The position numbers were made by a program, and so were the translations under genes. A stretch of DNA of 64,000 nucleotides, taken from assembly GCA_043775015.1 (NCBI GenBank), contig JAYVSV010000098.1, positions 7,501 through 71,500 on the forward strand, in the 5' to 3' direction. This stretch comes from Verrucomicrobiota bacterium. Lineage in GTDB: Bacteria > Verrucomicrobiota > Verrucomicrobiia > Limisphaerales > CANJXF01. The notes beneath the pieces are model-generated. The model made no database searches and was not told where the DNA came from. It saw nothing but the letters and a program-made list of their open reading frames with translations. Shown here piece after piece: positions 36,092 to 63,174 of this stretch; position 1 is the stretch's first letter, and every line of letters starts with the position of its first letter.

Positions 36092-36125
36092 TGGAGCGGG
36101 TGAAGGGAATCGAACCTTCGTCTCC
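36092..36125 (-). repeat. Partial tRNA-Gly (3'-terminal 34 nt): distal att-type direct repeat of the island
   Basis: tggagcgggtgaagggaatcgaaccTtcgtctc matches 63101-63133 with one mismatch and the same orientation. Confidence 0.85.
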
Positions 36126-36220
36126 ACACACATTTTTCAAGCCGTTTAATTGCAATTACTTAGTGTTTTGTAAAAATCCATTTCCTGCACTTTTTATTCT
36201 CACTCTTATTCTCACCCCGT

Positions 36221-36445
36221 GTGGCGAGCATTGTTAAACGCACCAAATCACAATACTGGACTGCATGCTTTACCAACCGCGACGGTCGGCAAATGAAGCG
36301 GTCAACCAAAACAACGGACCGCAATCAAGTCCTTCAAGTGGCCATCGAATTGGAGCGCGTCGAGAAACAAGCCAATCAAGGTATCCTCACCACAAATCAA
36401 TTGCGGAAAGTTTTGAATGATGTTTCGGAAAGAGTGAACGGATGT
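36221..36445 (+). pseudogene. Tyrosine recombinase/integrase, N-terminal fragment only (about 75 aa)
   Basis: MASIVKRTKSQYWTACFTNRDGRQMKRSTKTTDRNQVLQVAIELERVEKQ is a typical integrase arm-binding N-terminus. No catalytic domain follows. Confidence 0.7.
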
Positions 36446-36717
36446 GACATGACGGCGCTGGCCACATCAGAGTTGCGTTGCAACTGGTGCAACTCGTGAT
36501 GCGCTAATGTAAGACCAATCCGATATTTGCGAGCGCCGGACAAAATTTCGGCCATGCTCGGCGTGATATAATTGTGGAATTCATCAGCGTAAATCCAGAA
36601 ATCGCGTCGCGCGGTGATCTGTTTGGCCTGACGGCTCATCGCCAACTGTTGAAACTTTGAAACGAGCAATGTGCCCAGCAGATAGGAACCATGTTGCAGT
36701 CGGCCATTGAAGCCTTT
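36429..36717 (-). pseudogene. Conjugative coupling/TraD-VirD4-like AAA ATPase, internal fragment
   Basis: ..LLGTLLVSKFQQLAMSRQ....RRDFWIYADEFHNYITPSMAEILSGARKYRIGLTLAHHELHQL contains a Walker-B region (DEF). It has no N- or C-terminal remainder. Confidence 0.55.
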
Positions 36718-36881
36718 GGTCGGATTTGTTCCAGGATTAGTTTTTGCGTGTTCGGCAAGGAGGGACCTGCGCGGTTGTGGTAATGGTTGTAGCCCACCTC
36801 CCACGCGCCGATCCGGTCGCGCGTTGCGGTGTTGTTATTGCACGTGCCTTGCATCGAGCCGGTGAGCAGTTGGGTGGCCAA

Positions 36882-37016
36882 AGACCAGTCGTCGGCGATG
36901 GCAAAGAGAATGTTGGGGCACGGCGGCGCGGCGGCAACCGTGGCGGCGCCCGCCCGCCAAACCGGCAGCAGCGCCAGCACGGCGGTCAACAGCCGACCAT
37001 TGAAAGTTTTTTCCAC
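36882..37016 (-). pseudogene. Sulfatase 5' fragment (signal peptide plus PNILFAIADDWS only)
   Basis: GTG-EKTFNGRLLTAVLALLPVWRAGAATVAAAPPCPNILFAIADDWS, after which the sequence is no longer sulfatase-like. Confidence 0.4.
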
Positions 37017-37121
37017 ATAATCGTCCGTCAACTTCGCCAGTTGGCGCGGTCACGGCAATACACCCGTTCGGGGAGGTTGCCGCCCGCCACGACAATAGGC
37101 AAACTGCCTGCAAATCAGTCT

Positions 37122-38552
37122 ATGATTTCAAATCACAAATGCCGCCGCTGGTTCTGCGGGTTGACCGTGGGCAGCCTCATCCTCGCCGCGTTCACGTCGG
37201 CGGCGGTGAAGCCCCCGCCGCCAAACATCATTTTAATTCTCGCCGACGATCTCGGCTACGGCGACATCGGTGTGTTCAACCAAAACACCCGCGCCGCCGC
37301 CGGCCATCCGGCCATTCTCACCCCGCGCCTGGATCGGATGGCCACCGAAGGCCGGCGGTTCACGCAATTTTACGCAACCCCCTCCTGTGCACCTTCCCGA
37401 GCCGCCCTGATGACGGGCCTGCACAACGGCCACACGGACATTCGCAGCAACGGTGAGAACCTCAACCTGGATCGCACCGTCCGGATTTTGCCCGCCTGGC
37501 TCCAGGCGGGCGGATATGCCACGGGTTGCTTCGGCAAATGGGGCTTGGGCGAACGTGATGACACGCTGCCCACACCCACCGCCGCCGGCCAGATCGCGGT
37601 CGGCGAGGCCATTCCCAACCGCAAGGGCTTCGATGAATTTTTTGGTTATCTCTCACACTCGGCGGCGCATTTTTCGTTCGCGCCAGAATTGCTCGCGGTG
37701 CGTGGTCGGCGTCTCTGGGACACCTTCGGCACCAACCTCGTCGCCATCGAACCGCCGGCGGCTCACACCCAGGATTTGTTTGCCGCGCGGGCGCTGGATT
37801 TCATCCAACGCCACCGGCGGGAACCGTTTTTTCTTTATCTGCCCTTCACCCTGCCGCACGCCAACGCAACGATGAATCGCCTCGACGCGCCCACAATTGA
37901 ACCGGCCTATCGCGACCAGCCATGGCCGGACTGCGAAAAAAAATTCGCCTCCCTCATCACGCGCCTGGACCAGCACATCGGCCAGATTCTGGACAAGCTC
38001 ATCGAACTCGGGCTGGCTGAAAATACTCTCGTGCTCGTGGCCAGCGACAACGGCGCCCACTACGCCGGTGGCCACGATCATCTTTTCTTCAATAGCAGCG
38101 GGCCGTTTCGCGACCGAAAATTTTCCCTGTATGAGGGCGGCGTCCATGTGCCGCTCCTGGCCTGGTGGCCGCAGCATATTCCTGCTGGCACCACCCAAGG
38201 ACAGGTGGCCGCGATTTGGGATTTATTGCCGACCTTTTGCGAACTGGCACGCGTGACGCCACCGCCGGAAATTGACGGACACTCCATCGTCTCCGCTTTA
38301 CTCGGACAACCCGTCCGCCCGGACCACCCGACCCATCTGTATTGGGAAATACCGCCCGCCCGTTCCAGTCCGGGCAGCCAGGCCAGCCGCCTTGGCGAAT
38401 GGAAAGCCGTCCGTCGCGGCACCAATGCGCTCGAACTTTACAACCTGTCCGCCGATCCCGGGGAAGCCACCAATGTTGCGGGCATCTATCCCGCCCAGGC
38501 GGAAAAAATGAATCTCCTCCAGAAAAAATCCACCCGCCCGCCCGCCCATTGA
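37122..38552 (+). CDS. Formylglycine-dependent (type I) sulfatase
   Basis: Signal peptide, PNIILILADDLGYGD, and SCAPSRAALMTG (CxPxR). Start trimmed from the 36744 ORF to the ATG at 37122. Confidence 0.9.
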   Translation: MISNHKCRRWFCGLTVGSLILAAFTSAAVKPPPPNIILILADDLGYGDIGVFNQNTRAAAGHPAILTPRLDRMATEGRRFTQFYATPSCAPSRAALMTGLHNGHTDIRSNGENLNLDRTVRILPAWLQAGGYATGCFGKWGLGERDDTLPTPTAAGQIAVGEAIPNRKGFDEFFGYLSHSAAHFSFAPELLAVRGRRLWDTFGTNLVAIEPPAAHTQDLFAARALDFIQRHRREPFFLYLPFTLPHANATMNRLDAPTIEPAYRDQPWPDCEKKFASLITRLDQHIGQILDKLIELGLAENTLVLVASDNGAHYAGGHDHLFFNSSGPFRDRKFSLYEGGVHVPLLAWWPQHIPAGTTQGQVAAIWDLLPTFCELARVTPPPEIDGHSIVSALLGQPVRPDHPTHLYWEIPPARSSPGSQASRLGEWKAVRRGTNALELYNLSADPGEATNVAGIYPAQAEKMNLLQKKSTRPPAH

Positions 38553-38720
38553 GGACTCCACAACGAGGATGAACTTTGACCACCCATCGCTGAGGTTCGC
38601 TTGCTCGCCTTCCCCGGCCCGCTTTCCACTACGCGGGCGGGACGGTTTCCGCGCACCTATTCAGGGGTATTGCGAACCCCATCGCTGGCGTCCAAACTAA
38701 AAGCCGTGTTCGAAAAAACC

Positions 38721-41700
38721 ATGAACGTCAGAGCCAGTTCGCCGTGGTTTTGGGCCGTAAAAAATATTTTAAGTAACTGCTGGCTGCCACTCATCGCCGC
38801 CAGCAGTTCCTTGCCCGCCGCGCCTGACCACGGCGTCATCCATTTTTACGAGCCAAAGGAAACGCACCGCGCCCAGTCCGACGCGCATGATTTCGTCGTG
38901 GCCGGTGCCGAAGGAATTTTTTGGTGGGGTGACCTCGAACGCGAAGAAGGCGTCTATGATTGGTCGCGCGTGGATGAAGAAATTGCCGCGTGGCAGCGAG
39001 GCGGCAAACGCTTGGACATCCGCCTTGGCACTGCGCACAACTCGCCCTTCATCGCACCGCAATGGCTCTTCGACCGCTACCACGTCCGCCGCATCGGGCG
39101 CGGACATTGGACGGATTGCGAAGCGAATCTCGGCGACTACGTTCTTGGCGCGGACGGCCAGCGCACGGACAAATTGCCGTTCGTTGTTGGCGGCAATTTT
39201 TCCATCGCCAGCGTCAAAACCGATGCCGGAAAGAAAAGTCTCTGCGCGCTTAATCCGCAAATTCACCTCGACGCCGATGGGTTTTACGCCGTGGAATTCG
39301 ATTGTCGCACCTCGCAGCCCGTCACGGGCTGGGTGGAAATCTCCAGCGCCCTCGGCCATTCCACGAATCGTCTGACCTACACGGCTACGGCGAATAATCC
39401 AGCCAGCCAGTCCTTCACCCTTCAGATGCCGCCGTTCGCCGATGGGCAAGTCCGCTTCGGCTACGACGGGCCAGGCACGCTGTCGCTCGACCATCTCAAC
39501 ATCATCCGACTTGTAGGCGAGCCGCCGACCCACACCAATGATTTTGAAAAATCCAACCGGGACTGGGAACTCCGCGCCGGGGCACAAATCACCCACAACA
39601 AAAAACAAGTCATTACCGGTCTCGCTTCGTTGTTGATCACCGGCGGCGAAACAAATTTGCCCAACGGCCTCCGCAATCACGCACCCGATTTCGCGCTCCA
39701 GCGTGGCGAAGGCTATTTGTTTGAATTGAATTACCACGCCCTCTCCGACGCAACGCTTCGCTATCGCATCATCAATCACGACGCACCTTACGATGTCCTC
39801 GACAAACAGACGCTAAACATTCCGGCGGGCAAATCCGGTCGCCAAACGTTTTATTATCCGGCCTTTCTCTGGCGGGATCATTGCGACGTGGAAATTAGCG
39901 TCGTTGGTTCCGGCGAAGTCGTGATTGACGATTTGAAATGGGTGCGCTGGAGCGACCGCGTCACTTGTTTCCCGGATTATTTCAATCCGGTGTTTCAGGA
40001 AAAATGGACGGCCTTCATCGCGAAGTTTGCCGAACGCTACGGCGAAAATCCCGCCATTGGCACGATCAGCGTCGGCGGTTTTGGCCGCTGGGAAGAAACC
40101 ATTCTCGACGATGACGCCTATGGTGGACTCGATGAACAATGGCTCGCGCGTGGCTTCACCCCGGAAAAATATCTGGCGCGCATCACCGACTGCCTTGATC
40201 TCTACCGCCGGTTGTTGCCGCACAAATCACTTCGCATCTGTCTCGCTTACGGACTTTACCAGAAGAATCATCGTGACTGGCTTTATCGCCGCGTCGCCCA
40301 GGCTGCCGTGGCACGCGGAGTCGGCCTCAAGCAAAATGGTTTGAGCGAAAAATGGGATATGTGGGACGACAACACCAGCGCGAGCTACCTGTGGAATCGT
40401 TACCGTTTCACGCCGGGCGTCACGCTCACACTGGAAACCGGCGGCCAAATTGCACGAGCCGGCCCGGGCGGCGGACACCCCATTTCTTTTTTGAATCGTG
40501 GAATGATTGATGGTGCGGATCTTTTGTTTCTCTACGGCAGCGACATTGTTGCCCAGCCCGTTCATCAATACCTCCGCTGGTTGACCGAGCAGATGGGCCG
40601 CCCTCTCATCAGCCGATTTTACTGTCGGCTCGGTGACACGTCGTTGAAATACGATCACTCGCCCGTGCCGCTGGAGTATCGCAATCTCTGGCTCGGGCTG
40701 CGCCAGTTTCAGGACGCCAACGCGCAGGTTATCTACACCAATCGACTCGGCGAAAAGTGCGCCGCCACCAGCCCCGGCAATCCGCAAATTATTTTCGACG
40801 TGGACGACCGCCAGCAGTATCACGGCATGAATGGCGTCGTGCTCTCCGTGCAATATCTCGATGAAGGTACGGACAAATTTGAGGTCAAAGTCTTCAATCA
40901 ATCGTCGCGCGCCTGGCAAAATCTTGGTGTCGTTCAAAAAACCGGCAGCGGCCAGTGGCGCACGGCAGCGTTCGCGCAGCCGGATTGGTGTCGCAGTTCG
41001 CGCAACAGCGGTGAGGATGACCATTCGGATGTGGTCATCAACGACTTGGGCGACGGCGCGGAATTCATCGCGAATTTGGAAATGAATTTTGTTCCTGCCC
41101 GCGAATGGCAACGCACACTGCTCGCCGCCAGCGAACCGGCGGCGGCGCACGAAGTTTTAACGAACATCCTCAGCCGCGAAATTGAAATCCCCGCTGGCCA
41201 GCCGTTGAACTTCGTCGCCGTGCCGCTCTGGACGGGCAGCCTCGAAGCCAACGGCCTGCGTGGTCACGTCTTCGCGCTGACGGAGGGCGGTGAGAAATTA
41301 GTCAGCGACAAGGAATACGCGCTGCCTGCCGACAAAGATTGGTTCGAGCTGCCCATCGTGCCAGAACCAAATTGCTCGCGCTACAGAATCGAGTTGAGCC
41401 AGCCGAAAGGTTCGGTCGGGTGGTATCGCGCCGCCGATGGCTCGCTGCCTTTCCGCGCGTGGCGTTATGCTGAAAGTGAAACCAAGGCGGCGAAAATAAT
41501 TTCACTGGGCGAAAAAATTGCGCTCAATAAATCCTTCAATTTCGCGGCGGACGAACCGTTTTTCGGCCTGCACTTGAATCTTGCGGGGACGAATCACGCT
41601 GTTATTACTGCCCGATTGCGACGTGAATTGCCCAGCGCGGGTTGGTCGCCTATCATCACCGAGCAAGTCGTCACGTTGAATCGTGACCAGCCAACGTCGC

Positions 41701-42311
41701 TGTGGTTCGAGCCGCAGACTGCTGGCAATTATCAAATCGAACTCACCACCACCAACCGTGATTCAACCGCAGCTACCTTGGTTCGCGGGCGCGTGGTGGA
41801 ACCAATTTTTCTAACCCGCCGCGAATCGCCGCAGCGTCCACTGCCATTTGCGCCGCGCGGCGGAATTGCTTTATTTCAACCGACGGCAAACGGTGAACCG
41901 GCATGGCAAAATTTCAGAGGGTTGAAAATTTTGAATCGTGAAATGAACACATTTTACGCGCAAGTCATCGCGTCTGACGCAGCGTTTGAATTCACGCTGG
42001 CTAAACCAGCGACGACAGCTACGAACCAGTTGCTCGCGCTCCAATTACGAAACGGCACAAGTGCGGGCTTGGCACGAATTTTTTGGGCTGGCGCGGGCGA
42101 GCCATTTGATCCGGTGCGCTCTGCGTGGATTCCGCTCGTGGCGAATGACTCCGAGTTGCGCGAATACCATTGCGAGCTCGGACTCGAGGCCAACTGGCGC
42201 GGCGACATCACTCGCCTCCGCATCGAACCCGCAACGGGACTGACCGAACGCGGCACGCTCAGCCTCGGCCCGATTCGTTTATTGAAGTCCACTGGTTTCC
42301 AGGCACTGTAA
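38721..42311 (+). CDS. Secreted 1196-aa glycoside-hydrolase-like protein: TIM-barrel halves separated by two jelly-roll inserts, with C-terminal beta-sandwich modules
   Basis: FWWGDLEREEGVYDWSRVDEEIAAWQRGGKRLDIRLGT and, about 330 aa later, FNPVFQEKW..FAERYGENPAIGTISVGGFGRWEE resemble GH42/DUF4832-type barrels. A CBM4/9-like segment lies between them. The functional call is tentative. Confidence 0.6.
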   Translation: MNVRASSPWFWAVKNILSNCWLPLIAASSSLPAAPDHGVIHFYEPKETHRAQSDAHDFVVAGAEGIFWWGDLEREEGVYDWSRVDEEIAAWQRGGKRLDIRLGTAHNSPFIAPQWLFDRYHVRRIGRGHWTDCEANLGDYVLGADGQRTDKLPFVVGGNFSIASVKTDAGKKSLCALNPQIHLDADGFYAVEFDCRTSQPVTGWVEISSALGHSTNRLTYTATANNPASQSFTLQMPPFADGQVRFGYDGPGTLSLDHLNIIRLVGEPPTHTNDFEKSNRDWELRAGAQITHNKKQVITGLASLLITGGETNLPNGLRNHAPDFALQRGEGYLFELNYHALSDATLRYRIINHDAPYDVLDKQTLNIPAGKSGRQTFYYPAFLWRDHCDVEISVVGSGEVVIDDLKWVRWSDRVTCFPDYFNPVFQEKWTAFIAKFAERYGENPAIGTISVGGFGRWEETILDDDAYGGLDEQWLARGFTPEKYLARITDCLDLYRRLLPHKSLRICLAYGLYQKNHRDWLYRRVAQAAVARGVGLKQNGLSEKWDMWDDNTSASYLWNRYRFTPGVTLTLETGGQIARAGPGGGHPISFLNRGMIDGADLLFLYGSDIVAQPVHQYLRWLTEQMGRPLISRFYCRLGDTSLKYDHSPVPLEYRNLWLGLRQFQDANAQVIYTNRLGEKCAATSPGNPQIIFDVDDRQQYHGMNGVVLSVQYLDEGTDKFEVKVFNQSSRAWQNLGVVQKTGSGQWRTAAFAQPDWCRSSRNSGEDDHSDVVINDLGDGAEFIANLEMNFVPAREWQRTLLAASEPAAAHEVLTNILSREIEIPAGQPLNFVAVPLWTGSLEANGLRGHVFALTEGGEKLVSDKEYALPADKDWFELPIVPEPNCSRYRIELSQPKGSVGWYRAADGSLPFRAWRYAESETKAAKIISLGEKIALNKSFNFAADEPFFGLHLNLAGTNHAVITARLRRELPSAGWSPIITEQVVTLNRDQPTSLWFEPQTAGNYQIELTTTNRDSTAATLVRGRVVEPIFLTRRESPQRPLPFAPRGGIALFQPTANGEPAWQNFRGLKILNREMNTFYAQVIASDAAFEFTLAKPATTATNQLLALQLRNGTSAGLARIFWAGAGEPFDPVRSAWIPLVANDSELREYHCELGLEANWRGDITRLRIEPATGLTERGTLSLGPIRLLKSTGFQAL

Positions 42312-42314
42312 TTT

Positions 42315-45300
42315 ATGAAGAATATTTCGACCATGCGAACGATAATCTGGTTGCCCAAGTCCCTCTGGCGCGCGCTCGCGGTTCTGTTGGCGACCGCGGC
42401 GCTGACCACCGCCTTGGCGGATCCGCTTGATGAAACGGCGCGCAACACCTTTCATCTTTCACCCATTGGCGTGTGGGATCAGCGCCCAGGCGGCACGAAC
42501 TCTGTGGTGGGCTATCGCTCGCGGATGTTGTCCCTGACGGGCGGAGTGATGCCCAAGAATGTGAAGGCGGGCGTCTCCTCCGGTCTGGAATTTCTCCAGA
42601 GCACACACGGTGGTTACTACGATTATCTTTTCAGCCCCGGGAAGGTTCTTGATTTCACAACCTACACGGTGGCGGAAATTGATTACGTGACGGGCGTGAT
42701 TATTTCCAACGACATCCCGTTTGGCGTCCATGTCAACGGCATGCCGTGGGCTGACAGCGCCATCCAGAGCGAAGACATCCTCCATAACTACCTGGAAAAA
42801 TTTGGCGGCGGCAGCTACCTGCAGGTGGATCGCCTGGGGCGCATCCGCACCGGCACCTCAACCGATGTGACCACGAACGAGGTTTTCTCCGCTTCGGACG
42901 CGCTCGAAATGCAAGTCACGCTCTCGCGCAACGCCACGCTGGTACAAGACTATGCCGGTCGCAATTGCCGCATCGCCATGCGGGTGCTGGGGTCACAACG
43001 GGAGCAGCATCCCGACTTAATCACGTTCGCCAGCATGTCCTCGGAGGTCGCCCAGAATATTCATGCGAACACTGAGTATTGCGATTACAGCTCGTGGTCG
43101 AAACAGGAGTTTCGTGATTGGTTGAGCGGAACAAATCTTTACGCCGGGCAAGCGCAGTATGCGAGTCTGACGAACTTTAACGCCGCGTTCAGCGGGGCGT
43201 CCGGATTTCCGTGGGCGTCCTGGGATGTCGTTCAGCCTCCGACCAACGTAAATTGGAGCACATTCACCGCCACCGGCCGCTGGTGGCGTAAGTGGCATGA
43301 CTTCCGCACCAATCAGGTCGGGCAGATGGTTCAGGCGCAAGTCGGGTGGTGTCGCGACGCGGGTTGGAATCCCGACTCGCTCTACGGCCATCAAATCCCC
43401 CTCGACCCCGCCAGCACTTCCGATGATGACCGAAAATACGCGTCACCCTGGACGACCACCTTCGTGAATGGCGCCGGCAATGGCATCACCACCTATTACG
43501 GCAATGCCTCCGCCACGAATATCTTCTCCGCGATTCGCGCCAACGACAAAAACTGGGGCATCTTTGAGTATAACCCGATCACCAACAGCGTCGCCGCCAA
43601 TCTCGCCGCGCTCGACACGGTCTGGAATTCCGGCGGACGCGTCATCGCCCCTTACACTTGGTGGGGCTTTGACACATACCAGATTTATGATCGGCCTTTG
43701 CAAACCGCGTTGTCGCAATTTATCTTCAATCATAGCAACCAGTCCTTCACCAACCTGGCGCCTTACGAAGTCAGCCCTGCCGCCCGCGACGTGATTTGGG
43801 CGATGAGTGAGAGTGACGACATTGAGAGTTCATCCGGGGTGAGCGCGCTGGTTTTCACCAATGGAATTTTGTCCGGTCAGATTACCAACGCCACGCCGAT
43901 GCTCTCCTTGGAATTCAACGAATCGCCGACGCGCTTTATTCTTTCCGACCAATACTACGCGGCCTCGTTTCGTTTCTACCTCAGCAATGCCCTGGTCGGC
44001 TTCGGCCAGATCGCCTGGGTGGATAACACCGGCGCGACCAATGCCGTCACGTTCCCCGCGCGCCCCGGCTGGAATGTTTACCGCGTCAATCTCGCCGAAA
44101 ATGCTGCGTGGCGAGAAAAGAAGATCCAAGCCCTCGAATTTCGACCGGCCTCGGCCAGTGGGAATTTCAGTCTCGATTGGTTCCGGCTCGAAGCCGCCCC
44201 CTGCTGGCACTTCGATGACGCGAACGAAATCTATGGCGTCAACGATGTGACCAACGCAACCATTGCGGGCGGCATCTTCAGCGGCACGAGCGGGCCGGAT
44301 GCGTATTTCTATTTCTCCACCGACAAGCGCAATGCAAGTGAGGATGCCGATCGCGCTTACGTGGATGCCAACACCTACAAGAAAGTTCGAGTGCGCCTGA
44401 CTTCTTCTACTGCGAGCACCGGGCAGATGTTCTGGTGGAAACGGGGCACTTCATTTTTCACCACCACTTTCGCTGTTGCTGCCGGCACCCAAACCTACGA
44501 GTTGGATCTGTCCGCCGATCCGAATTGGACGGGCGACATCACGCGCCTCCGACTTGATCCCGTCAACCAAGCGGGCATCGCGTTTGAGGTGGATTACCTT
44601 TCCGTCGCGCCAGTCATGCTCCCGCCGCGCATCGCCAACTCCGATCTCATCGTGAATTCTCCCGCGCCCGTTTTCCTGTGGGATGGCGCGTTCGAGCCGA
44701 ATCATTCCGGCGTCAGCTACACGCTGGAACTCTCCACGAATTTCTTTTTCACCAACGCGGTATTCGCGACGAACGGCTTGACCGGCAGCCGGCTGGTTTA
44801 CAACGGCACGCCGGTGCTGGACGGCCTCTACTGGTGGCGCATCCGCGCCCGCGACGCGGCGGGCAACCTCTCGCCGTGGGCCGTGCCGATGCCGATGTTT
44901 GTCCGCACCTGGAACTTCAACCAACTTGCGGACATCGCCTCCTCAAATCAATTTGGGGCCGCTGCCATCAACAGCGGAGTCTGGCAGGCGACGAGCAGCG
45001 GCAACGACCCGTATATGAATTTCAATACGGGCAGTCCCTCCAATCGCGGTGTCAACGCGGACCTTTACAATCGGTTTGTTTGCCGGGTGAAAGTGGCAAC
45101 GGGGGTAAATAATTTTGCGCAATTCTTTTGGTTTCCCAAATCCGGCGGGTTCGCTTTTACCAGTCCCACACTGCCCGCCGATAACGCGTGGCATGATCTG
45201 GATATTGATCTGAGCCAGAACGCGCAGTGGAAAGGGTATCAAGACTCGGTGCGGCTTGATCCGACTTCGTTGCCCGCCACACAAGTCTCGCTCGACTACG

Positions 45301-46934: not shown

Positions 46935-47006
46935 GGTTCTAACCTTGGCGCGCGCCTTGTGCCCAACCATTCGGATTCAGCGAATACCCGCGCGACTAAA
47001 TAACGG

Positions 47007-49376: not shown

Positions 49377-49414
49377 GAAAGCGCTCACACCGTTCTGTTC
49401 CGCCGTGCCGCCGT

Positions 49415-52180: not shown

Positions 52181-52351
52181 GTGGAAATTCATTTTGGGGA
52201 TCAGTATAACCGTTTCATTGTTGAATCGTTGATTGGTTTGCCGATGACGGCTGGCATTGAAACAAGATCGCCACCTCGCTGCGAAATGCGAATTGCAGAA
52301 AAACCGCTCGGCTGACAGCAACTAAAAACTGGATTCTGGAATTGGGTCTTG

Positions 52352-54010
52352 TCATCGCGCGTCTCGCTCCAGCTTTTGATACGCTTCCAGTGCTTGCTGA
52401 TACTCCGCCACAGCTTCTGGCGACAACACACTCGTGTTGGTGGCGATTTCCTGTTTCATCCGCTCAACAAGCCAGGCCACTTCCTCGCGGCGTGGTCGCA
52501 ACGGCGCGGTTGAATCGTCAAACCATGACGGTGCGGTGTGGGCAAAGCGAATTCGTCCGCCATTACGTTCTTCCCAGCACCGGAGTGCGAGCCAGCTTGT
52601 GCCGGTAATTTTGACCGAGGCCTTGAACCGCGCTTCATACGCGCCGTCACTGTTGCGTTTCGTTTTCAATGGAATCGTCTGCACGGTCGCGCCGTTCGCA
52701 AGCACCTCGAGGGCGTGAACCGGTTTCTCACTCAACACAGTACCGCTGATTTTGACTCGCTGCGCTTTTCCTGAAGTCATCGCAAATTTCCCGCCTGGCA
52801 CTTCGCCATTTATTTCAGCGAGCAACATCGGTCCGGTCGTAACAAAGCTGCGACCTGCGCCCAATCCTTTGATCCAGTCGTCGTAGGTGAAACCGCGCGG
52901 GCAATGGACATACACGCGGCCAAATCCGAGCGGCACGGGATGCACGCCACTCGCTGTGCCCGCGGTGGGGCGCATCCGAAAGCCGCAGTCGAGCAGCGCA
53001 TAGTAGGTGTTCAAGGTGTAATTGATCCAATCCCGCTCCCCACCACTACGCCCCGCGTCCGGCAGACGCATGAACGCAGGCGCGGGCACGTTAAAGTTGG
53101 TAAAGCCATACTCGGTGCGCCAGAGATGGTTGTTGGCGAGTTCGTAGAGGTCAATCTGCATTACCGGCGGCAGCATGAGTGACCAATTCCAATTACATTT
53201 GTCCATGTCCAGCAACGCACCCTGCCGGTGCGCCTCTTCCGCCACCGGACGCAACGGCGGCGCGCCGAGCGTGAAGGGTTTGCGATGATTCAGGATGAAC
53301 ACCGCGCCAAGGTTGTGATCTTTGCCGCCGACGCGATAGATTTCGTATTCCGTGTTGAGGGGCCAGATGACGTGGGTGGCGTCGGCCTTGATCAGCGAAG
53401 GGGAAATTTCCGGTTCACCGGATTTGTCGCCCGGCGTGGTTGAATCTTGAGCGCCAAAGAATTTATTGCTGCGTGTGGGCCGGGTGTTGTCCTGGATGGC
53501 CCAATACGACTGCGGCAACGCGACGTTCAAGTCTTCGGCCAGCACGAGCACCGGTAGATCGGCGAGCGACCGATGCACATGGCCGTCGCCGGAGAACCAA
53601 CCGCGTGCCGCCATGTTGATCCAGCGATGCAATTCGAGTTTCACGGCGAGCGGCTTGTCGGTGACAACAACCTCTTTCGTTAACGGATGATATTCCTTGC
53701 CGCGTTCGGCTATGAAGGTGTAGCGACCGGGCGGCAGTTCGACACGAAACGGATGCCCCGAGAGCGTGGTGTGAACTTCCATCGCGCGCGGATTGACCCA
53801 ATTGGTCTTGGCGTAACGAACGGCGGTGCCGCCGATGGATTCCGCGAAAAACCATTCGCCCGCGGCGCTCTGAATGTAGAGGCGCGAGGCAACGATTTTG
53901 GAGGCGTCTGTGATTTCACCCGTCACCGTTGCGCCAAGGGCTGTGCCAAACGGCGCGAGCGACAGAAAAACGGCGAGCGACAGGCGCTGTTTAATAATCT
54001 TCAACCTCAT
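52352..54010 (-). CDS. Secreted HxH metallohydrolase-like protein, paralogue 3
   Basis: Signal peptide MRLKIIKQRLSLAVFLSLAPFGTALG; RGWFSGDGHVH, LDCGFRMRPTAGTA and GRSFVTTGP. Trimmed to the ATG at 54010. Confidence 0.65.
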   Translation of the reverse strand: MRLKIIKQRLSLAVFLSLAPFGTALGATVTGEITDASKIVASRLYIQSAAGEWFFAESIGGTAVRYAKTNWVNPRAMEVHTTLSGHPFRVELPPGRYTFIAERGKEYHPLTKEVVVTDKPLAVKLELHRWINMAARGWFSGDGHVHRSLADLPVLVLAEDLNVALPQSYWAIQDNTRPTRSNKFFGAQDSTTPGDKSGEPEISPSLIKADATHVIWPLNTEYEIYRVGGKDHNLGAVFILNHRKPFTLGAPPLRPVAEEAHRQGALLDMDKCNWNWSLMLPPVMQIDLYELANNHLWRTEYGFTNFNVPAPAFMRLPDAGRSGGERDWINYTLNTYYALLDCGFRMRPTAGTASGVHPVPLGFGRVYVHCPRGFTYDDWIKGLGAGRSFVTTGPMLLAEINGEVPGGKFAMTSGKAQRVKISGTVLSEKPVHALEVLANGATVQTIPLKTKRNSDGAYEARFKASVKITGTSWLALRCWEERNGGRIRFAHTAPSWFDDSTAPLRPRREEVAWLVERMKQEIATNTSVLSPEAVAEYQQALEAYQKLERDAR

Positions 54011-54032
54011 AATTTTTTCTGAATGATGGAAT

Positions 54033-54060
54033 AAAAAAAGACCGGGCCGAAGCCCGGTCT
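54033..54060 (-). terminator. Rho-independent terminator after the LamG gene
   Basis: Minus strand reads agaccgggcttcggcccggtct followed by ttttttt. Confidence 0.8.
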
Positions 54061-54081
54061 TCTGATTGATCGAACCCGAGC

Positions 54082-56418: not shown

Positions 56419-56477
56419 GGTTGGTTCAGGTTTTTTATTTTATTTTTTTATGCAGGTAGAGACTCAGGACGCCGAAA

Positions 56478-57305
56478 TTAATACCACTTAGATACAAAGT
56501 TGTTGGTTTGAGTAAGCGAACGGCTTTCAACATGGCCGTCCATAAAGACAACATTTACTCGTCCGCCGGGGGAGGTCTTGCCGTGCTTAAAACCAGCGCG
56601 ATAAATCGGCTTCCCGCCGAAGTAAATATACGCATCAAAGAATCTGCCTTCCTTCCACGGCATCGCCACAAAGCCGACATCATAAGAAACATCGGTGATC
56701 AAAAACGTATCGGATGGCTTAATGACGGAGCTGATCTTGGCGGCCTTGGAATAAACATAAGCGGCTTGGTCAGTGACATCTTTAGTCGGATCGACGGCGA
56801 TACCCGTGGCGCTGTTCATGCCGTAGCTCACCTTCCAGAGAGAAGGCCCGAACGGGCCAGGCGGAAAAGCTGGATTGTTCAACGGCTCTTTCAGGCGATT
56901 GGGGCAGGTAAAGACACTTTTGGCAAAATCGCTGGTCTCAGTGGAGTTGCCCGCACTGAACTCACCCTTCTTGATGTACGGCGTGAGCAGATACATCCAA
57001 TTGTTCTTGTTTGGGTCGAGCACGGCGGCAGCGTGCGCAAAGGGAAGTCCGTCACTGTTGTCATCTGCGTACAAAATAGTAGCGAGACCACACTGGCGCA
57101 GATTGTTTTTGCAGGCGATGCCACTGGCCTTGTCTTTTGCCTTGCTTAAAGCGGGCAGCAGCAGACCGGCAAGAATGGCAATGATGGCGATGACCACCAA
57201 CAGTTCGATCAACGTAAATGCCCGCCGACTGCGAAAGCTGGCTCTGGAGATTTTGAAAATCAACATGCTCCCAAAAAAATCATAACGTTGGCGGTGGTGG
57301 TTCAT
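56478..57305 (-). CDS. Prepilin-leader (type II secretion pseudopilin-like, DUF1559-type) protein
   Basis: [31 protein letters not shown], with a C-terminal [10 protein letters not shown]. The start may be the Met at 57266. Confidence 0.85.
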
Positions 57306-57372
57306 TAAACTTAATTGAATGTGAGAAAATACTCCCCCTCATGTTTCCCAACAATACCCCCAAAAGGGTGTA

Positions 57373-57993
57373 TCATTCGCGGAACTTCATCACCGCCTCG
57401 GTGCGTGAGCGCACATGGAGCTTGGCGTAGATGTTTTTCAAATAGGCATGAATCGTTTCCACCGACAGCCCCAGCGCCTCGGCCACCTCTTTGTTGCTGT
57501 AACCCTGCGCCACATAGCTGAGAACATCGGTTTCGCGCTTGGAAAGATTTTCCGCCGTCTTGCCTGACGCATCCTTTTGAAAAGATTGCACGACTTTGCG
57601 CGCGATGTAATTCGACATTGGTGCGCCTCCGTGTTGCACATCTTGAATGGCCTGGAGAATTTCATCCGCCGGCGAACGCTTGAGCAGGTAGCCGTTGGCG
57701 CCCATTTGCAGTGCGCGAAAAATCCGGTCGCTGTCGTCATACACCGTGAGCATGATGATGTGGGTTTTCGGCAGAAGCTGCTTCAACTGCCGCGTGCATT
57801 CCACGCCGGACATCTTCGGCAGGTTGATGTCCATTAGCACCACGTCCGGCTTTAATTTTGGCATCCCTTCAATCGCCGCTTCGCCGTTGGAAAAAACACC
57901 CAGACATTTGAACCCCGTCTTTTCTCGCAACAACGCCTGCAAGTTTTCCCGCGTCTTGAAATCGTCTTCCACAATGGCAATCGTGATGGGCAT
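57373..57993 (-). CDS. NarL/LuxR-family response regulator
   Basis: Receiver domain (EDD..., DVVLMDINLP, ..MLTVY..) plus a LuxR HTH (LSKRETDVLSYVAQGYSNKEVAEALGLSVETIHAYLKNIY). Confidence 0.93.
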   Translation of the reverse strand: MPITIAIVEDDFKTRENLQALLREKTGFKCLGVFSNGEAAIEGMPKLKPDVVLMDINLPKMSGVECTRQLKQLLPKTHIIMLTVYDDSDRIFRALQMGANGYLLKRSPADEILQAIQDVQHGGAPMSNYIARKVVQSFQKDASGKTAENLSKRETDVLSYVAQGYSNKEVAEALGLSVETIHAYLKNIYAKLHVRSRTEAVMKFRE

Positions 57994-57999
57994 AAAAAA

Positions 58000-60993
58000 T
58001 CAGGCGTTGAGGCTTTTCAACGGCACGGTGAAAAATAATTCCGTGCCGGTGGCGGGCGCGCTCTCGACCCGCAAATTTCCGCCGAGCGCGGCCAGTCGTT
58101 CGCGGATGTTGGCGAGGCCGTCCTGGCCGGGTTGCACCCCGGTCAGCGGCAAGCCCCGGCCATTGTCGGAGATGGTCACCAGCAAATCAGTTTCTGAAAG
58201 TTGCAGCCGAATCCACAGTTCCGTCGCGCCCGAATGGCGGGCCACGTTGTTGAGCGCTTCCTTCAACGCCAGAAACAAATGGTGCCGCGCCTCGGTCGTC
58301 ATCGGGTGCGCGGGCAAATCCGCCGGAATGTCCAAGCGACAACGAATGGCCGTGGGCTGAAAAAATTCGCCGGCGAAATGCGCGATGTAGTTGGCGAAAT
58401 GTTCCAGCGAATCGTTCTGCGGGTTCAACGCCCAAACGATGGCGTCCATCGCAGTCAAACTTTGCCGCGCGCTGACCGCAATTTTTTCCAAGTCCACCGT
58501 CACGGCTTCCGGCTGTGAAATATGTTTCCGTCCCAAATCCGCCAGCCAGCCAATGCTCGTGAGATTCGCGCCCAACTCATCGTGAATATCTCGGGCAATC
58601 CGGCCGCGCTCCTGTTCCAACGCATGTTGCTGTTCCAAAATTTCAATCCGCCGCTGCAACCGCCGCAACGCAAACCAGCGCACAATCAACGCCATCAGGA
58701 CGATGCTCGCCGCGACGGCCAGCGGCGGAAACCACCACGTCTGCCAAAAAAATGGCGCGACCACCAACGCGATGCCTGCCCCTTGCTCATTCCAAGTGCC
58801 GTCCGCATTGCTCGCGATGACCCGAAAGCGATGCGCCCCCGGCGACACGTTCGTATAAGTGGCGACGGCTTCCGCACTCGGCGGACTCCAGTCCGCGTTT
58901 TCGCCACCCAGCTTGTGACGGTAACGCACGCGTTCTGGCGCATCGAACTCCGGCGCGGAAAATTGAAATTCCAAAATCCGCACGCCCGCCGCCAGTTCCA
59001 AATCATTCTGCAATGGCTGGGATTCGCCGTTGCGCCGCACCCCCTCGATAAAAATGCTCGGCGGCTCATGATTACGCTTCATCGCGGTCGGCCAAAAACT
59101 GACCGCGCCTTTCACGCTCGCAAACCAGAATTGCCCGGCGCGCGTGGCGAGGGCGGCGGGTTGAAATTCTCCGTTGAATTGAAAACCGTTCAGCCCGTCA
59201 CTGTGGCCGTAGCTGAACGTTGGCAACGAAGTCCGCTTACCTTCGACGTAAGCATTCAGTTCGTGCAACTCCACGCGGAACAATCCACGGCTCGTGCCAC
59301 ACCACATCCAGCCGGAACTGTCGAGCAGCAAACTTTGAACGGCGTCATCCGGCAAGCCTGCCGCCGCCGTCACGTTTTTAAAGCGTCCATTTTTGAATCG
59401 CACCAAACCCTCGCCGGCCGTGCCGAGCCAGATGGCGCCATCATCGGCGGCCAGCATCGCGCGGATGCTTTCGCCCGCGGAATGATCGTGAGGAAAATTT
59501 TGAAATCTTCCGTTGACCAGCTTGGCCAGCGCGCCGTCTGCCGTGCCGACCCAGATGTTGCCGACGGAATCTTCCGCCACATCACGCACGGCCTTGTCCG
59601 GCAAGCCGTCGTTGACTGTGTAATGTTTCAACCGTTCGCCTTCCAGGCAATACAAGCCGTCCAAATACGATCCCGCCCAGACCCGGCCAGAACTATCCAC
59701 GCGCAGGCAATTCACAAAATGAATCGGCATCCCCAAATTCTGGGTAAAATTGCGGAAATGCCCGTCGCGCCAATAATAAAGTCCTTCGTTCTGCGTCCCA
59801 ATCCACACGCCGCCCTCGGCATCCGCCGCGAGGCACAGCGGATTGATTTCCGGCCAGCCGTCCGCCGCGCCAAAAACTTTTACCACGCCGTTGCTCCAAT
59901 AGCTCAAGCCCTGGTCTTGCGTGGAAATCCAAATCCGGTTTTGCGTGTCCTCCGCAAAAGAAAAAACGCGGTCGTTGGGCAGGCCACGATGACTGTTCAA
60001 CACTTTGAACTGACGCGCCCGGATCAAGTCCAGCCCGCCGCCCTGCGTGCCGACCCACAAATTGCCCGTGCGATCTTCCGTCAGGCACAAAATATTATTG
60101 TGCGAGGTCGGCACGGATTGAAAACGCCCGCCGAACCAGCGGAACAACCCTTTCGCGCTCGTGCCGACCCAGACTGCGCCCGCGCGGTCTTCCAGCAGGT
60201 CGCGGACATTCGCCTCGCCCACCAGCCACGGCAGCGTGGTGATTTCAGTCAGTGCCCCACCCGACTCCACGCGATAAAGACTTCCGGACGTGGACATCCA
60301 AACGCCGCCCGCCCGCGCCGGTGTGATATAAAGTGACGCCTGCAAATTCGTCGCCAAAGCGATAAATTTATTATCCCGAAAAAATCCCAACGTGCCGCCG
60401 CTCGCCAGCCAGACTGTGTTCTCGCTGTCCGTGACCAGCGTGGAAGTTCGCAATGGCCCCGGCACGGGAATGCCCAGAGATTTCATCGTGCCGGCGAAAA
60501 GTTGATCCACCTCGCCTTCCAGCGAAACCGTCCAAATGCGACCGATAGAATCCGAACAGAAACTGTAAGCGCGATGCCGATCCGGCTGGCCATCCACCGG
60601 CAATGCCTCGAAAATTCCGGCTTGCCGCGTCAGCACGCCGCCGGACTCCAGCGCCACTAACACCTTGCCGTCCGGTGCGTGGCTCATGCGCCACACGCTC
60701 ACTTTGGTCGCACCGGTCAGGCCGGGCGTGAAGCCGGAGACAAACTTGCGCCCATCAAAACGTACCAGCCCGTTGCGCGTGCCGACCCAGAGAAAACCAT
60801 CCGCCGTCTGCGCCACGCCATGCACATCGTTGTTCGGTAGGCCTTCCTCGGTTTGCCAGCTTTGATAAAAAAATCCGTTGGAAATTTCCACGGCATTGGT
60901 CTCACCGGTGGCGTGGGCGTATCTGGGAAAAAGCAGTCCCAGCCCGACCAGTAACACCAGCCCGACTGAAAAAATAAATCGGTGCAATAACAT
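58000..60993 (-). CDS. Sensor histidine kinase with periplasmic two-component-regulator beta-propeller and Y_Y_Y domains
   Basis: Repeated ..G.LW.GT..GL..F.. propeller blades, then YRHKLGGENADWS (Y_Y_Y-like), one TM, the HisKA_3 H-box RIARDIHDELGANL, and the HATPase motifs NVARHSGA / DNGRGL. Confidence 0.9.
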   Translation of the reverse strand: MLLHRFIFSVGLVLLVGLGLLFPRYAHATGETNAVEISNGFFYQSWQTEEGLPNNDVHGVAQTADGFLWVGTRNGLVRFDGRKFVSGFTPGLTGATKVSVWRMSHAPDGKVLVALESGGVLTRQAGIFEALPVDGQPDRHRAYSFCSDSIGRIWTVSLEGEVDQLFAGTMKSLGIPVPGPLRTSTLVTDSENTVWLASGGTLGFFRDNKFIALATNLQASLYITPARAGGVWMSTSGSLYRVESGGALTEITTLPWLVGEANVRDLLEDRAGAVWVGTSAKGLFRWFGGRFQSVPTSHNNILCLTEDRTGNLWVGTQGGGLDLIRARQFKVLNSHRGLPNDRVFSFAEDTQNRIWISTQDQGLSYWSNGVVKVFGAADGWPEINPLCLAADAEGGVWIGTQNEGLYYWRDGHFRNFTQNLGMPIHFVNCLRVDSSGRVWAGSYLDGLYCLEGERLKHYTVNDGLPDKAVRDVAEDSVGNIWVGTADGALAKLVNGRFQNFPHDHSAGESIRAMLAADDGAIWLGTAGEGLVRFKNGRFKNVTAAAGLPDDAVQSLLLDSSGWMWCGTSRGLFRVELHELNAYVEGKRTSLPTFSYGHSDGLNGFQFNGEFQPAALATRAGQFWFASVKGAVSFWPTAMKRNHEPPSIFIEGVRRNGESQPLQNDLELAAGVRILEFQFSAPEFDAPERVRYRHKLGGENADWSPPSAEAVATYTNVSPGAHRFRVIASNADGTWNEQGAGIALVVAPFFWQTWWFPPLAVAASIVLMALIVRWFALRRLQRRIEILEQQHALEQERGRIARDIHDELGANLTSIGWLADLGRKHISQPEAVTVDLEKIAVSARQSLTAMDAIVWALNPQNDSLEHFANYIAHFAGEFFQPTAIRCRLDIPADLPAHPMTTEARHHLFLALKEALNNVARHSGATELWIRLQLSETDLLVTISDNGRGLPLTGVQPGQDGLANIRERLAALGGNLRVESAPATGTELFFTVPLKSLNA

Positions 60994-61501
60994 TTTTTTA
61001 TCCGATATGTGACCTTTGTATATTTGCGCCAGCTGCGCTGTATTTTAGCTCGACATAAAGCGAAAAGCCAAGCTCAAGTGACCACTTTGCGGGTGCAGCC
61101 TGACATGGATAATACACCTGTTTGGGGGTGTTGCCCCAACATCCACTATGTCGTGATGATATGGTCATGGCTGCAAAAATAAAACCACTGGCCGGCGTTT
61201 CCGTCCGAAGACAAGCCAGCGGCGTCGCTTTTTTCAGCCTGCTGTTGACCGGACTGCTGCTGCCAGTCCCAAGTTTTGCTCGTCCAAACATCTTGCGCCG
61301 CTTCACGATTGATTGGGAGCGTCCATTCAATTCCAAAAGCCACGTCCTCGCCGCGCATCCCGAACTCAACGCGTTCGACGTGGTTGTCAGCGACGAGGTG
61401 CTGGTATAATCCGCCACGCCGCCCGAGTCAGCCCGTGCTGCGAAACAACACCGGCATCATCACCCGAGAAAAATAATTTCGACCAAACCCAGATTTGCCT
61501 A

Positions 61502-62524
61502 ATGAAAATCAAGTCGCTAAAAAGTTTAATTCTCGTGCTAACCTTGCTCGCACTGTTCGCTGGCAAGGCGGGCGAAAATTCCGCTCGCCCCACCGTCGGC
61601 AGCGTCGCTCCAATCAAGCAAGCCAAAGACACGGTGCGCGTGGCTGTCGCGCAGATGACCATCAAGCCGGATGAATTAAAGCCGGGTCTGGACACCGTGG
61701 ACGCGCTGTTGCCGTGGATCAAACGCGCCGCCGCCCAGAAGGCCGACCTCGTGGTGTTCCCCGAGTATTTGCTCGGTGCGTTTCATTTGCCGGATTCGTT
61801 GACCGACAAATTGTGCGCGGTCGCCAAGACAAATAATTTGAACATCGTCGTCGGCGGCTGGGAATTTTTGCCCGGCTTTAAAATTCAACACCCGCCCGCC
61901 CCCAACACTTACGCCAACTCCGTGCTCGTCGTCAGTCGTGACGGAAAAGTTGTGGGCAAGCATTACAAGATGCACGCCGCTGTCGGGTCAAGTTCGCCCT
62001 ACAACTGGCCGCCTGATCCCGGAGAGCGTGGCGAGCAGACGATGATTCCCGGCACCGAGAACGCCGTCGTGGATTTGGACTTTGGCCGCATCGGTTTGCT
62101 GACTTGCTACGATGGATACTTTTTCGAGAGTTTTGAAATGCCTTCCCTACGCGGTGCCGAAGTGTTGATTTGGGTCAACTCGCGTCCCGGCATGGTAGAG
62201 CCGCACATCATCAAAGCCGCGAGCTTCATCACTTGCACGCACGTCGTGGCGGTGAACCAATCCATCGGTTGCGGCTCGGCCATCTGCGCGTATCCGGGCT
62301 GGGCGTTGTCAGCGGTGGCGGAAAAGTTGGGCGAGGAAAAGTTAATTGTCGCCGATCTGAATCTGGTGGAAATCCGTCAGCAACGTCTGAACAACCGCAT
62401 GTTTCACCAACGTCGCCCGGAAATTTACACGCCCATCACCCAAGCGTGGCAGCCGTGGGACGCGTATCCTGACGTGAAACCATTCCATTACGACTCAACG
62501 AATACAGCAAATGCGCAGCGGTAG
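61502..62524 (+). CDS. Secreted carbon-nitrogen hydrolase (nitrilase superfamily) protein
   Basis: Signal peptide MKIKSLKSLILVLTLLALFA. The E-K-C triad context is VVFPEY, HYKMH and LLTCYDG. Trimmed to the ATG at 61502. Confidence 0.8.
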   Translation: MKIKSLKSLILVLTLLALFAGKAGENSARPTVGSVAPIKQAKDTVRVAVAQMTIKPDELKPGLDTVDALLPWIKRAAAQKADLVVFPEYLLGAFHLPDSLTDKLCAVAKTNNLNIVVGGWEFLPGFKIQHPPAPNTYANSVLVVSRDGKVVGKHYKMHAAVGSSSPYNWPPDPGERGEQTMIPGTENAVVDLDFGRIGLLTCYDGYFFESFEMPSLRGAEVLIWVNSRPGMVEPHIIKAASFITCTHVVAVNQSIGCGSAICAYPGWALSAVAEKLGEEKLIVADLNLVEIRQQRLNNRMFHQRRPEIYTPITQAWQPWDAYPDVKPFHYDSTNTANAQR

Positions 62525-62594
62525 TTTTTTGGGCCCCAATCCGGCGCGCGCCAAATTTCCAGTTAATTTCCCGATAAAACTCATTCGCCATGCT

Positions 62595-62828
62595 CTACCA
62601 TTTCACGGAAAAAATTTTATCCCAGCGCGAGGTGAAAGTTTGGGAACGCCGCTTCGCGCCGACTTTCCATTCGTGCTCAAAACCTTGCGCGGCGAATTGG
62701 ATTTTGTTGCAGCCAAATTTTTTGTTCAAGGAATCAACCGTTTTGATGGCGCGTTCGTTGCGTTGCCGATTTTCAATCGGCGCAAATAAATCCTGCGGCA
62801 CTTCGTGATCCATTGAAGAAAAGTCCAC
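62595..62828 (-). pseudogene. UmuC (Y-family polymerase V) C-terminal fragment
   Basis: QDLFAPIE...AIKTVDSLNKKFGCNKIQFAAQGFEHEWKVGAKRRSQTFTSRWDKIFSV aligns by eye to the last ~65 aa of E. coli UmuC. The upstream frame is closed by a stop. Confidence 0.7.
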
Positions 62829-63100
62829 CGATGGGTCTTGTTGAAAGAAAGAACTGGTTGGAAAATAAAAAACCGTTAAAGCATGAGGGATCGTTCCAAT
62901 TTTGGAAGCTGCAATTAAAAGGCAACCGCATTCTCACCAAAGGTAGTTCCGACCCCGCAAATATTACTGAAAACGCTGGAAAATTTGCTCAATAAAACCT
63001 CAAAAGTTCAGCCTGCCATTCTCACTTTTATTCTCACTTTGGTTTTATTGAAAATTCAAATGTGCTATAAACCATTGATTTCATTGGTCGAAATAGAGGT

Positions 63101-63174
63101 TGGAGCGGGTGAAGGGAATCGAACCCTCGTCTCAGCCTTGGGAAGGCCACATTCTACCATTGAACCACACCCGC
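63101..63174 (-). tRNA. tRNA-Gly (anticodon CCC), CCA encoded
   Basis: The reverse complement is gcgggtg-tg-gttcaatggtagaat-g-tggcc-ttCCCaa-ggctg-agac-gagggttcgattccctt-cacccgc-t-cca. Confidence 0.92.

Follow-up and report, generated by a model that had tools for sequence, protein, structure and literature searches.

In a window of 64,000 nucleotides from a Verrucomicrobiota bacterium (GenBank assembly GCA_043775015.1, contig JAYVSV010000098.1, positions 7,501 to 71,500 of the forward strand), the segment at 36092-63100 (27,009 bp) is probably a genomic island that originated when a tyrosine-integrase element inserted in the 3' end of a gene for tRNA-Gly(CCC). The window denotes this whole stretch, and all coordinates are counted from its first letter. 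The original prediction, made from the letters and their translated reading frames, had proposed an element that integrated at this tRNA end and has since lost its mobility genes, and the repeat signature, an integrase remnant (int'), an ATPase remnant (ATPase'), and breaks in composition and synteny all agree with that proposal. The island belongs to an ordinary and well-documented type, decayed and tRNA-integrated, and its cargo comprises 12 genes at ~36.9-62.5 kb (25.8 kb).

The intact tRNA-Gly(CCC) gene, with an encoded CCA end, lies at 63101-63174 on the minus strand, where it had been predicted and where ARAGORN and the Rfam tRNA model (65 bits) both place it. The last 33 nt of this tRNA, CCA included, recur in the same orientation at 36092-36124, with a start-to-start distance of 27,009 bp. 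The copy had been described as 34 nt long with one mismatch; the orientation and the single mismatch are as stated, and the length is 33 nt, the 34th base being different. The mismatch, T at 36117 versus C at 63126, is located in the 5' strand of the T-stem and looks like decay of the displaced copy, because C occupies this position in the intact tRNA and in almost every related fragment from other loci. No further copy of the 33-mer was found in the window with up to three mismatches allowed, and two 33-mer matches were obtained in none of 100 shuffles. A repeat search lengthens the pair to 52 nt, with 88% identity between 36073-36124 and 63082-63133. The left attachment site (36073-36124) is accordingly composed of the core at 36092-36124 and a weaker, host-side 19-nt extension at 36073-36091, and the right attachment site (63082-63133) of the 33-nt core, supplied here by the intact tRNA's own 3' end, and an island-side 19-nt extension at 63082-63100. 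The patchy similarity previously noticed for about 20 nt past the tRNA end corresponds to this extension, in which 14 of the 19 positions match (binomial P ~5e-5), compared with 1 of the next 19. Strings similar to CCATTGATTT (CCATTGATTT.AT.GG) are also present in the host DNA adjoining the attachment (att) fragments of three loci (L155, L128, and L115) of the integrase family described below. Because of these strings and the 14 matching positions, the attachment site of the element (attP) may hold an imperfect copy of the region downstream of tRNA-Gly.

Just inside the left copy lies an integrase pseudogene (36221-36499, plus strand, GTG start), in which codons 1-74 correspond by homology to the N-terminal, arm-binding region of a tyrosine integrase of 378 aa. 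The homology fades after ~36442 and is weak up to residue 92, with a stop at codon 93; the ORF (open reading frame) has 24 short homologues in the protein database. An integrase 5' fragment had been reported 95 nt inside the left copy; the fragment is there, and its start at 36221 is 96 nt after the 33-nt core. It is followed by an ATPase fragment on the minus strand (36433-36720) that covers residues ~614-707 of ~999, including the Walker B region, with both gene ends missing; this 94-codon piece matches residues 630-704 of a family protein (L124) at 87% identity. Neither int' (92 aa) nor the ATPase fragment is recognized on its own by Pfam or NCBIfam, and both were identified only through their homologues. 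In a family locus with the same order and strands (L095), the two genes are ~4.6 kb farther apart than in the window, and the junction at 36433-36442 would mark a deletion of ~4.5 kb. A second junction lies between 36720 and ~36880, where a possible sulfatase 5' stump begins. At the other end, the umuC 3' fragment that had been seen inside the right copy is a minus-strand pseudogene (62595-62828) consisting of the last ~65-77 codons (DUF4113, E=2.9e-14; UmuC model positions 358-422 of 422). Its lost 5' portion would be expected on the tRNA side, which implies a putative deletion there as a third event. With only int codons 1-74, ATPase residues 614-707, and the umuC tail remaining, the element is dead and the island immobile, since the mobility genes are reduced to fragments.

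The int start is preceded by paired direct repeats, ATTCTCAC-N4-ATTCTCAC, at 36196-36215 on the plus strand (+104/+116 from the core start), which are candidate P' arm sites and end 5 nt before the start codon. Three further plus-strand copies at 62930, 63018, and 63030 (62930-63037; -171, -83, and -71 from the core) are candidate P-arm sites. The window contains seven copies of ATTCTCAC versus 1.67 expected, a count that no shuffle reached, and five of the seven are located no more than 200 nt from an island end, all of them in plus-strand orientation. In more than 30 family loci, the int-proximal pair is the same 20-mer as the right-end pair of the window (63018-63037). When the island ends are joined, repeat pairs at -83/-71 and +104/+116 flank the 33-nt core and the int start lies at +129, an arrangement equivalent to a lambda-like attP in which each arm has its repeat pair. 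The ATTCTCAC repeats are likely binding sites of the N-terminal arm-binding domain of the integrase. The int-proximal pair stops 5 nt short of the start codon and may therefore have a second role in regulating int, as at KplE1 intS. A mere int promoter was considered as another explanation for the pair; no sigma-70-like promoter was detected upstream of int' on the plus strand in a consensus scan, and the identical pair is present at the gene-less tRNA end and in one other family locus, L176. For these reasons, arm sites, possibly doubling as an operator, are the preferred reading. In L176, an identical 23-mer lies at -83/-71 from the core fragment of that locus, followed by the +104/+116 pair and int, and no other sequence is shared with the window on the right-arm side. 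The right-arm pair, core fragment, left-arm pair, and truncated int stand side by side there (L176 9780-10010), in an attP-like or tandem-junction arrangement, and genes for AcrB, OEP, and LysR proteins occupy the other side.

The same organization recurs throughout an integrase family in metagenomes. A scan of JGI metagenomes with the int' alignment gave 285 relatives, of which 80 loci were fetched and 64 att fragments compared. The full-length integrases (377-391 aa) possess Phage_integrase and SAM-like domains with the catalytic HxxR...Y region. The att fragments share a layout in which a tRNA 3' fragment of 25-33 nt is followed by ~70 nt of element sequence, the motif pair, and the int start. 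The tRNA fragment starts 126-130 nt upstream of the int start codon in most loci, and the motif ATTCT[CT]AC occurs at +102 to +105 and +114 to +117 from the fragment start in ~60 of the 64 fragments, which is -24/-12 relative to the int start; the int start in the window, at +129 from the core, agrees with the family value of ~+127 to +130. The fragments mostly consist of tRNA-Gly sequence, and about a dozen loci have a second tRNA type instead (L096, L112, L127, L130, L132, L133, L156, L169, L170, L172, L180, L181, and L185). The second fragment reads TGGTAGCGCG[CT]ACGGGAATCGAACC, with spacing and arm motif unchanged. The family thus appears to have switched tRNA targets while keeping its arm sites. 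Another decayed copy, composed of a 76-aa int stump and an att fragment, is located directly after rpsL-rpsG (L097 9872-10231; L098 4925-5284), at the place where fusA would normally come, and no intact tRNA was found within 10 kb of it.

In 16 family loci, an ATPase of 995-999 aa is encoded on the minus strand 1-4 kb beyond int, and the full-length proteins match the TrwB_AAD_bind, DUF87, T4SS-DNA_transf, and TraG-D_C domains. By tblastn, the ATPase is no more than 20-28% identical to DUF87 proteins from phages and plasmids of Bacillus and from plasmids of Streptomyces and archaea. A phage gene was considered as an identity for it; the matches at 20-28% fall on both phages and plasmids, and the function of the matching PHROG, phrog_5156, is unknown. 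These comparisons identify it as a mobile-element ATPase. Gene content was surveyed in the int-proximal 10 kb of the 16 members (89 ORFs), for which the listing covered the 25 commonest among 56 matched families. The recurrent families were the TrwB-like ATPase (9 members), DUF87, PEGA, and RadC, and ArdC, HepT, a primase zinc finger, and varied cargo occurred once each. Taken together, the family appears to be large and mostly associated with Verrucomicrobiota, with the integrase and a ~1,000-aa TraD/VirD4-like ATPase as its conserved genes. Its members are probably conjugative or mobilizable. In IMG/VR, a scan with the int alignment returned three distant integrases (39-43%), a scan for the arm motif returned one AT-rich chance match (L102), and a scan for the right-end pattern returned no match.

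The island also differs from its surroundings in composition. The G+C content is 52.3% in the 36 kb of the left flank versus 57.3% in the cargo (36744-62524), and the terminal element remnants are AT-richer than either, with 46.8% G+C at 36126-36743 and 42.9% at 62525-63100. Up to 34 kb, the strand-symmetric tetranucleotide distance from the left flank stays at 0.12-0.18; at 36 kb it rises abruptly to 0.24-0.27, and it lies at 0.22-0.27 in every 4-kb segment starting between 36 and 58 kb. Mean G+C at third codon positions (GC3) is 0.678 in 11 island genes versus 0.585 in 26 flank ORFs (Mann-Whitney p=2e-5). Given these shifts in G+C, tetranucleotides, and GC3, the compositional break is real and affects synonymous sites. 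The higher G+C that had been noted inside the island is therefore upheld, with the qualification that the breaks lie at ~36.7 and ~62.5 kb, just inside the att sites and not exactly at the repeats. Elsewhere in the window, a 280-aa ORF at 2036-2878 (minus strand), between obg (7-1191) and ffh (2920-4263), has a GC3 of 0.40 versus the flank mean of 0.585 and no Pfam match, and it may be another small foreign insertion.

Both island borders coincide with breaks in synteny. On the left, the protein adjoining the repeat is a DUF4440 protein with relatives annotated as Verrucomicrobiota. A contig of GCA_046593365.1 (L001) is collinear with the window over 27089-36050 at ~84% nucleotide identity. 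The alignment breaks off at the stop codon of DUF4440, which leaves 22 nt to the extended left repeat and 41 nt to its 33-nt core. The right end of the window falls within a FadL-like gene. Using this FadL fragment, 80 genomes were fetched, and the 36 best-matching loci were scanned for tRNAs; tRNA-Gly was found upstream of FadL in none of the 36. In the best FadL relative (L015; 84% aa identity), similarity begins only inside the FadL gene, and upstream of that gene there is no tRNA. A homologue of the window segment 21168-22159 is present in L015 at 3-994, inverted and only 9 kb from FadL; the corresponding window gene (21098-22390) belongs to the Mur-ligase family (Mur_ligase_M, Mur_ligase_C). 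This placement suggests an inversion or rearrangement with a breakpoint near the island site. The site is rearranged further relative to L001, L003, and L015, and gene neighborhoods here have been reshuffled among the available relatives. A strain contig that is 96% identical to the window (L013; ENA ERZ27313621) ends inside the 33-nt core. It comes from a k=141 assembly and stops in the core although the repeat is shorter than k, which could reflect a mixture of occupied and empty sites in the sample. Exact-protein look-ups of window genes returned short contigs only, with no second copy of the whole locus; the response regulator was matched by a 921-nt Logan contig only, and the DUF4440 protein, taken from M16, by no record. 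In the left flank, dnaA (11785-13173, minus strand; Bac_DnaA 2.5e-73) is followed by an AT-rich non-coding region (13174-13590; G+C dip to ~47%) and a PII-like 132-aa ORF (13591-13989, minus strand). This region, which may represent the origin of the chromosome, lies ~23 kb from the island, the cumulative GC skew being not clean enough for confirmation.

Based on these features, a probable course of events can be proposed. An element of the family would have integrated into the segment from the T-arm to the CCA end of tRNA-Gly(CCC). Recombination between attP and the tRNA gene would have regenerated the tRNA at the right border, and the original 33-nt tRNA 3' end would have been displaced to the left border. 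At least three internal deletions would then have removed the catalytic domain of the integrase, most of the ATPase, and all other functions for excision and transfer. The cargo would have been kept in an island that is now fixed in place.

Several observations weigh against this reading. No empty attachment site (attB) was found. The original prediction had proposed a comparison with empty sites in related genomes; relatives without the island at this site do exist, but they also have no tRNA there. The closest relatives with long contigs (80-85% aa identity) have an O-methyltransferase gene after DUF4440 and no tRNA, as seen in L001 and in a second lineage (L003-L012), and a pattern for the DUF4440-side junction had 0 matches in JGI metagenomes. 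The ancestral order DUF4440-tRNA-FadL is consequently an assumption, since the relatives show other neighbors and no tRNA. The right-arm motif is corroborated by one locus other than the window, L176. With respect to transfer, no relaxase or type IV secretion gene was found among the island proteins of the window, and no relaxase, type IV secretion (VirB4), or capsid gene was among the 25 most frequent of the 56 families in the 16 surveyed loci. The ATPase scores far below the NCBIfam cut-off of every coupling-protein model, and its best match is phrog_5156. Finally, the remnants (43-47% G+C) differ from the cargo (57%), and no cargo homologue turned up in 80 other family members within 10 kb of int; for these two reasons, the cargo need not have been part of the original element. 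Of the earlier claim that the segment was horizontally acquired and possibly conjugative, the foreign composition stands, and "conjugative" is a plausible label only, because its basis is the distant coupling-protein-like ATPase and ArdC in relatives; for delivery of the cargo by the element, we lean only slightly in favor.

That slight preference has to be held against a less likely alternative in which the element integrated first without cargo and the 25.8-kb cluster later replaced its interior by a separate recombination. The three tiers of composition (flank 52.3%, remnants 43-47%, cargo 57.3%) would fit such a sequence, as would the truncated genes on both sides of the left cargo junction (the ATPase at residue 614 and the possible sulfatase 5' fragment) and the absence of cargo homologues from the int-proximal 10 kb of other family members. 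Orthologues of the cargo in addition reside in ordinary chromosomal context, for example beside asd and exbBD in L187, with no element genes. However, later entry needs an extra, unexplained insertion inside an element of at most 27 kb, and the cargo borders showed neither a transposase or second integrase nor any additional repeats. The remnants are largely non-coding att arms, in which low G+C is expected anyway, and the relatives were sampled in their int-proximal parts only, which bears on the missing homologues. Integrative elements also commonly carry large cargo of different composition, which counts against a separate entry.

A composite of two tandem elements at the same tRNA, with the middle att site lost and the left and right remnants derived from different elements, is improbable. 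Tandem arrays at tRNA genes are known, with 125 in Islander (PMC4383910), the side-by-side arrangement in L176 is that expected of a tandem junction, and no umuC turned up within 10 kb of int in family members; however, the window holds only two copies of the 33-mer, and the same ATTCTCAC motif is present at both ends with family-typical spacing at each. Least of all is it to be expected that no integration took place, with the left copy a relic of tRNA-Gly duplication or rearrangement and the G+C difference a reflection of gene kind: gene order around the site does vary between relatives and the similarity continues 19 nt beyond the tRNA end, but the fragment ends exactly as in 60+ integrase-linked fragments and has the arm motif and int start at family spacing, the GC3 shift lies at synonymous sites, and in relatives that bear the cluster, the housekeeping genes match it in G+C. 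Integration of a single family element at the tRNA-Gly(CCC) 3' end, followed by decay, is thus retained as the preferred reading.

The cargo begins at its left edge with a possible 5' fragment of a second sulfatase (36882-37031, minus strand), tentatively assigned from a signal peptide and a PNILFAIADDWS motif; 16 of 25 residues are identical to the N-terminus of the L100 sulfatase (E=1e-4 in a three-sequence comparison). The first intact gene encodes a sulfatase (37125-38552, plus strand; PF00884 1.2e-47, SGSH_C), the listed ORF starting at 36744 and the signal peptide beginning near 37125. It is followed on the same strand by genes for a secreted protein of 1,236 aa with a weak GH42-like stretch (38601-42311), which is 61% identical to a 1,107-aa protein of L186, and a secreted protein of 1,539 aa with a C-terminal Big_9/cadherin-like domain (42315-46934). 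On the minus strand follow two CehA/McbA-family metallohydrolase-domain proteins of 742 aa (47007-49235; 1.2e-48; orthologues 78-85% aa) and 968 aa (49415-52321; 7.4e-70; 88.7% aa identity to L099), a 610-aa protein of unknown function (52352-54184; 94% aa identity to L099 over 267 residues), a 778-aa Laminin_G_3 protein of the concanavalin-like lectin/glucanase type (54082-56418), a 275-aa protein with a prepilin-type N-terminal methylation site and DUF1559 (56478-57305), and a LuxR/GerE-type response regulator (57373-57993; 83% aa identity to L186). The adjacent 997-aa sensor histidine kinase (58000-60993, minus strand) contains Reg_prop beta-propellers, Y_Y_Y, HisKA_3, and HATPase_c, and the 604-aa ORF pointed out earlier at 58522-60336 exists as its plus-strand antisense shadow. 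A 139-aa ORF with no family match (60998-61417, minus strand) and a secreted carbon-nitrogen hydrolase of the nitrilase family (61502-62524, plus strand; ORF from 61313), the last gene of cargo-like composition, complete the cluster.

Orthologues of the cargo share 85-94% aa and 83-88% nucleotide identity in GCA_031411455.1 (L099), and 54-83% aa identity in L186. The gene order is the same in L186, with kinase, regulator, pseudopilin-like protein, LamG protein, and two hydrolases, and the homologue of the 1,236-aa protein convergent to them; genes for GH106 and GH78 rhamnosidases are present in addition. The orthologue contigs have 57-60% G+C throughout, including the housekeeping half of L187 (asd, exbBD), and no tRNA, integrase, or ATPase was found on them. 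By composition and position, the cluster is therefore at home in higher-G+C Verrucomicrobiota and foreign in the 52% G+C host, and these data point to a higher-G+C member of the phylum as the donor. From its domain content, the likely role of this two-component-regulated cluster is the degradation, outside the cell, of a sulfated glycan that may contain rhamnose. Such a role fits the ecology of Verrucomicrobiota, in which glycan clusters are rich in sulfatases and rhamnosidases (PMC8857213).

The island represents a precisely bounded horizontal gain of a complete, regulated glycan cluster, probably for sulfated glycans, by an uncultured Verrucomicrobiota lineage, and clusters of this kind are considered to underlie the niche breadth of these bacteria (PMC8857213). 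Nothing in it alters the present picture of how genomic islands function. Possibly more useful than the island is the sequence definition of an abundant integrase family (33-nt core, ATTCTCAC spacing, int at +129, ~1,000-aa ATPase), which allows islands to be mapped with single-nucleotide precision in metagenome-assembled genomes of Verrucomicrobiota, where island finders trained on Proteobacteria perform poorly. A non-exhaustive literature search returned nothing specific on the att, arm, and int signature or on the giant ATPase; this family-level combination may be undescribed, and it fits established models. A tentative and rather doubtful extension is that the family is an undescribed, widespread Verrucomicrobiota lineage of tRNA-targeting elements that could move whole glycan clusters, with the present island a captured and domesticated example. 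It would be marked by an int gene beside the tRNA fragment, ATTCTCAC arm sites directly adjoining the int start codon, and the ~1,000-aa TraD-like ATPase as the only conserved transfer gene. If this is true, glycan clusters could be moved between Verrucomicrobiota lineages in the manner of polysaccharide utilization loci (PULs) borne by integrative and conjugative elements (ICEs) in Bacteroidota.

Among known systems, the closest are the islands in tRNA genes catalogued by Islander, for which an intact tRNA with a displaced 3' fragment in the same orientation is the signature (Hudson, Lau and Williams 2015, PMC4383910). As in Islander islands of the class with attP in the T-stem region, an intact tRNA gene and a same-strand displaced fragment bound the island, the block of identity extends from the variable loop and T-arm to the 3' end, and the integrase is of the tyrosine type; a length of 27 kb and a composition that differs from that of the host are typical as well. 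Unlike those islands, the window retains an integrase stump of only 74-92 codons, with no other Phage_integrase match among the island ORFs, so that it would fail the Islander integrase filter, and the island is immobile. Adjacency of tRNA and int is the rule in most textbook islands, whereas int lies at the fragment end here and not beside the intact tRNA.

Likeness to ICEs and integrative and mobilizable elements, such as ICEclc, which integrates at tRNA-Gly, and SXT/R391, which carries rumAB, is seen in the integration at a tRNA 3' end, the TraD/VirD4-like backbone ATPase, the large accessory cargo, the ArdC and RadC of family members, and the remnant of a Y-family polymerase (umuC). In contrast to those elements, no relaxase or type IV secretion system was seen in the window or, among the 25 listed families, in the first 10 kb of the 16 relatives, and the family ATPase is only distantly related to characterized coupling proteins. 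The att region resembles lambda-type attP in its direct repeats, which lie on both arms at fixed distances around the core. For prophage KplE1 intS, autoregulation of the integrase gene at arm sites is described (PMC2951348), and binding of Int to the pair 5 nt before the start codon could control int in a similar way; the window differs in that no sigma-70-like promoter was detected upstream of int' and in that the ATTCTCAC motif is specific to this family.

With regard to the cargo, mobile-element-borne PULs are known in Bacteroidota (PMC6907783, PMC5849685). The cluster is not a canonical PUL, because no SusC/SusD pair was matched by Pfam or NCBIfam among the 12 cargo proteins, and it differs further in that several of its key proteins match only the CehA/McbA metallohydrolase domain model. 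It shares with Bacteroidota PULs and with the glycan clusters of Verrucomicrobiota (PMC8857213) a regulated set of sulfatase and large secreted hydrolases within the scar of a mobile element, and with the latter also the GH78 and GH106 rhamnosidases that its relatives include.

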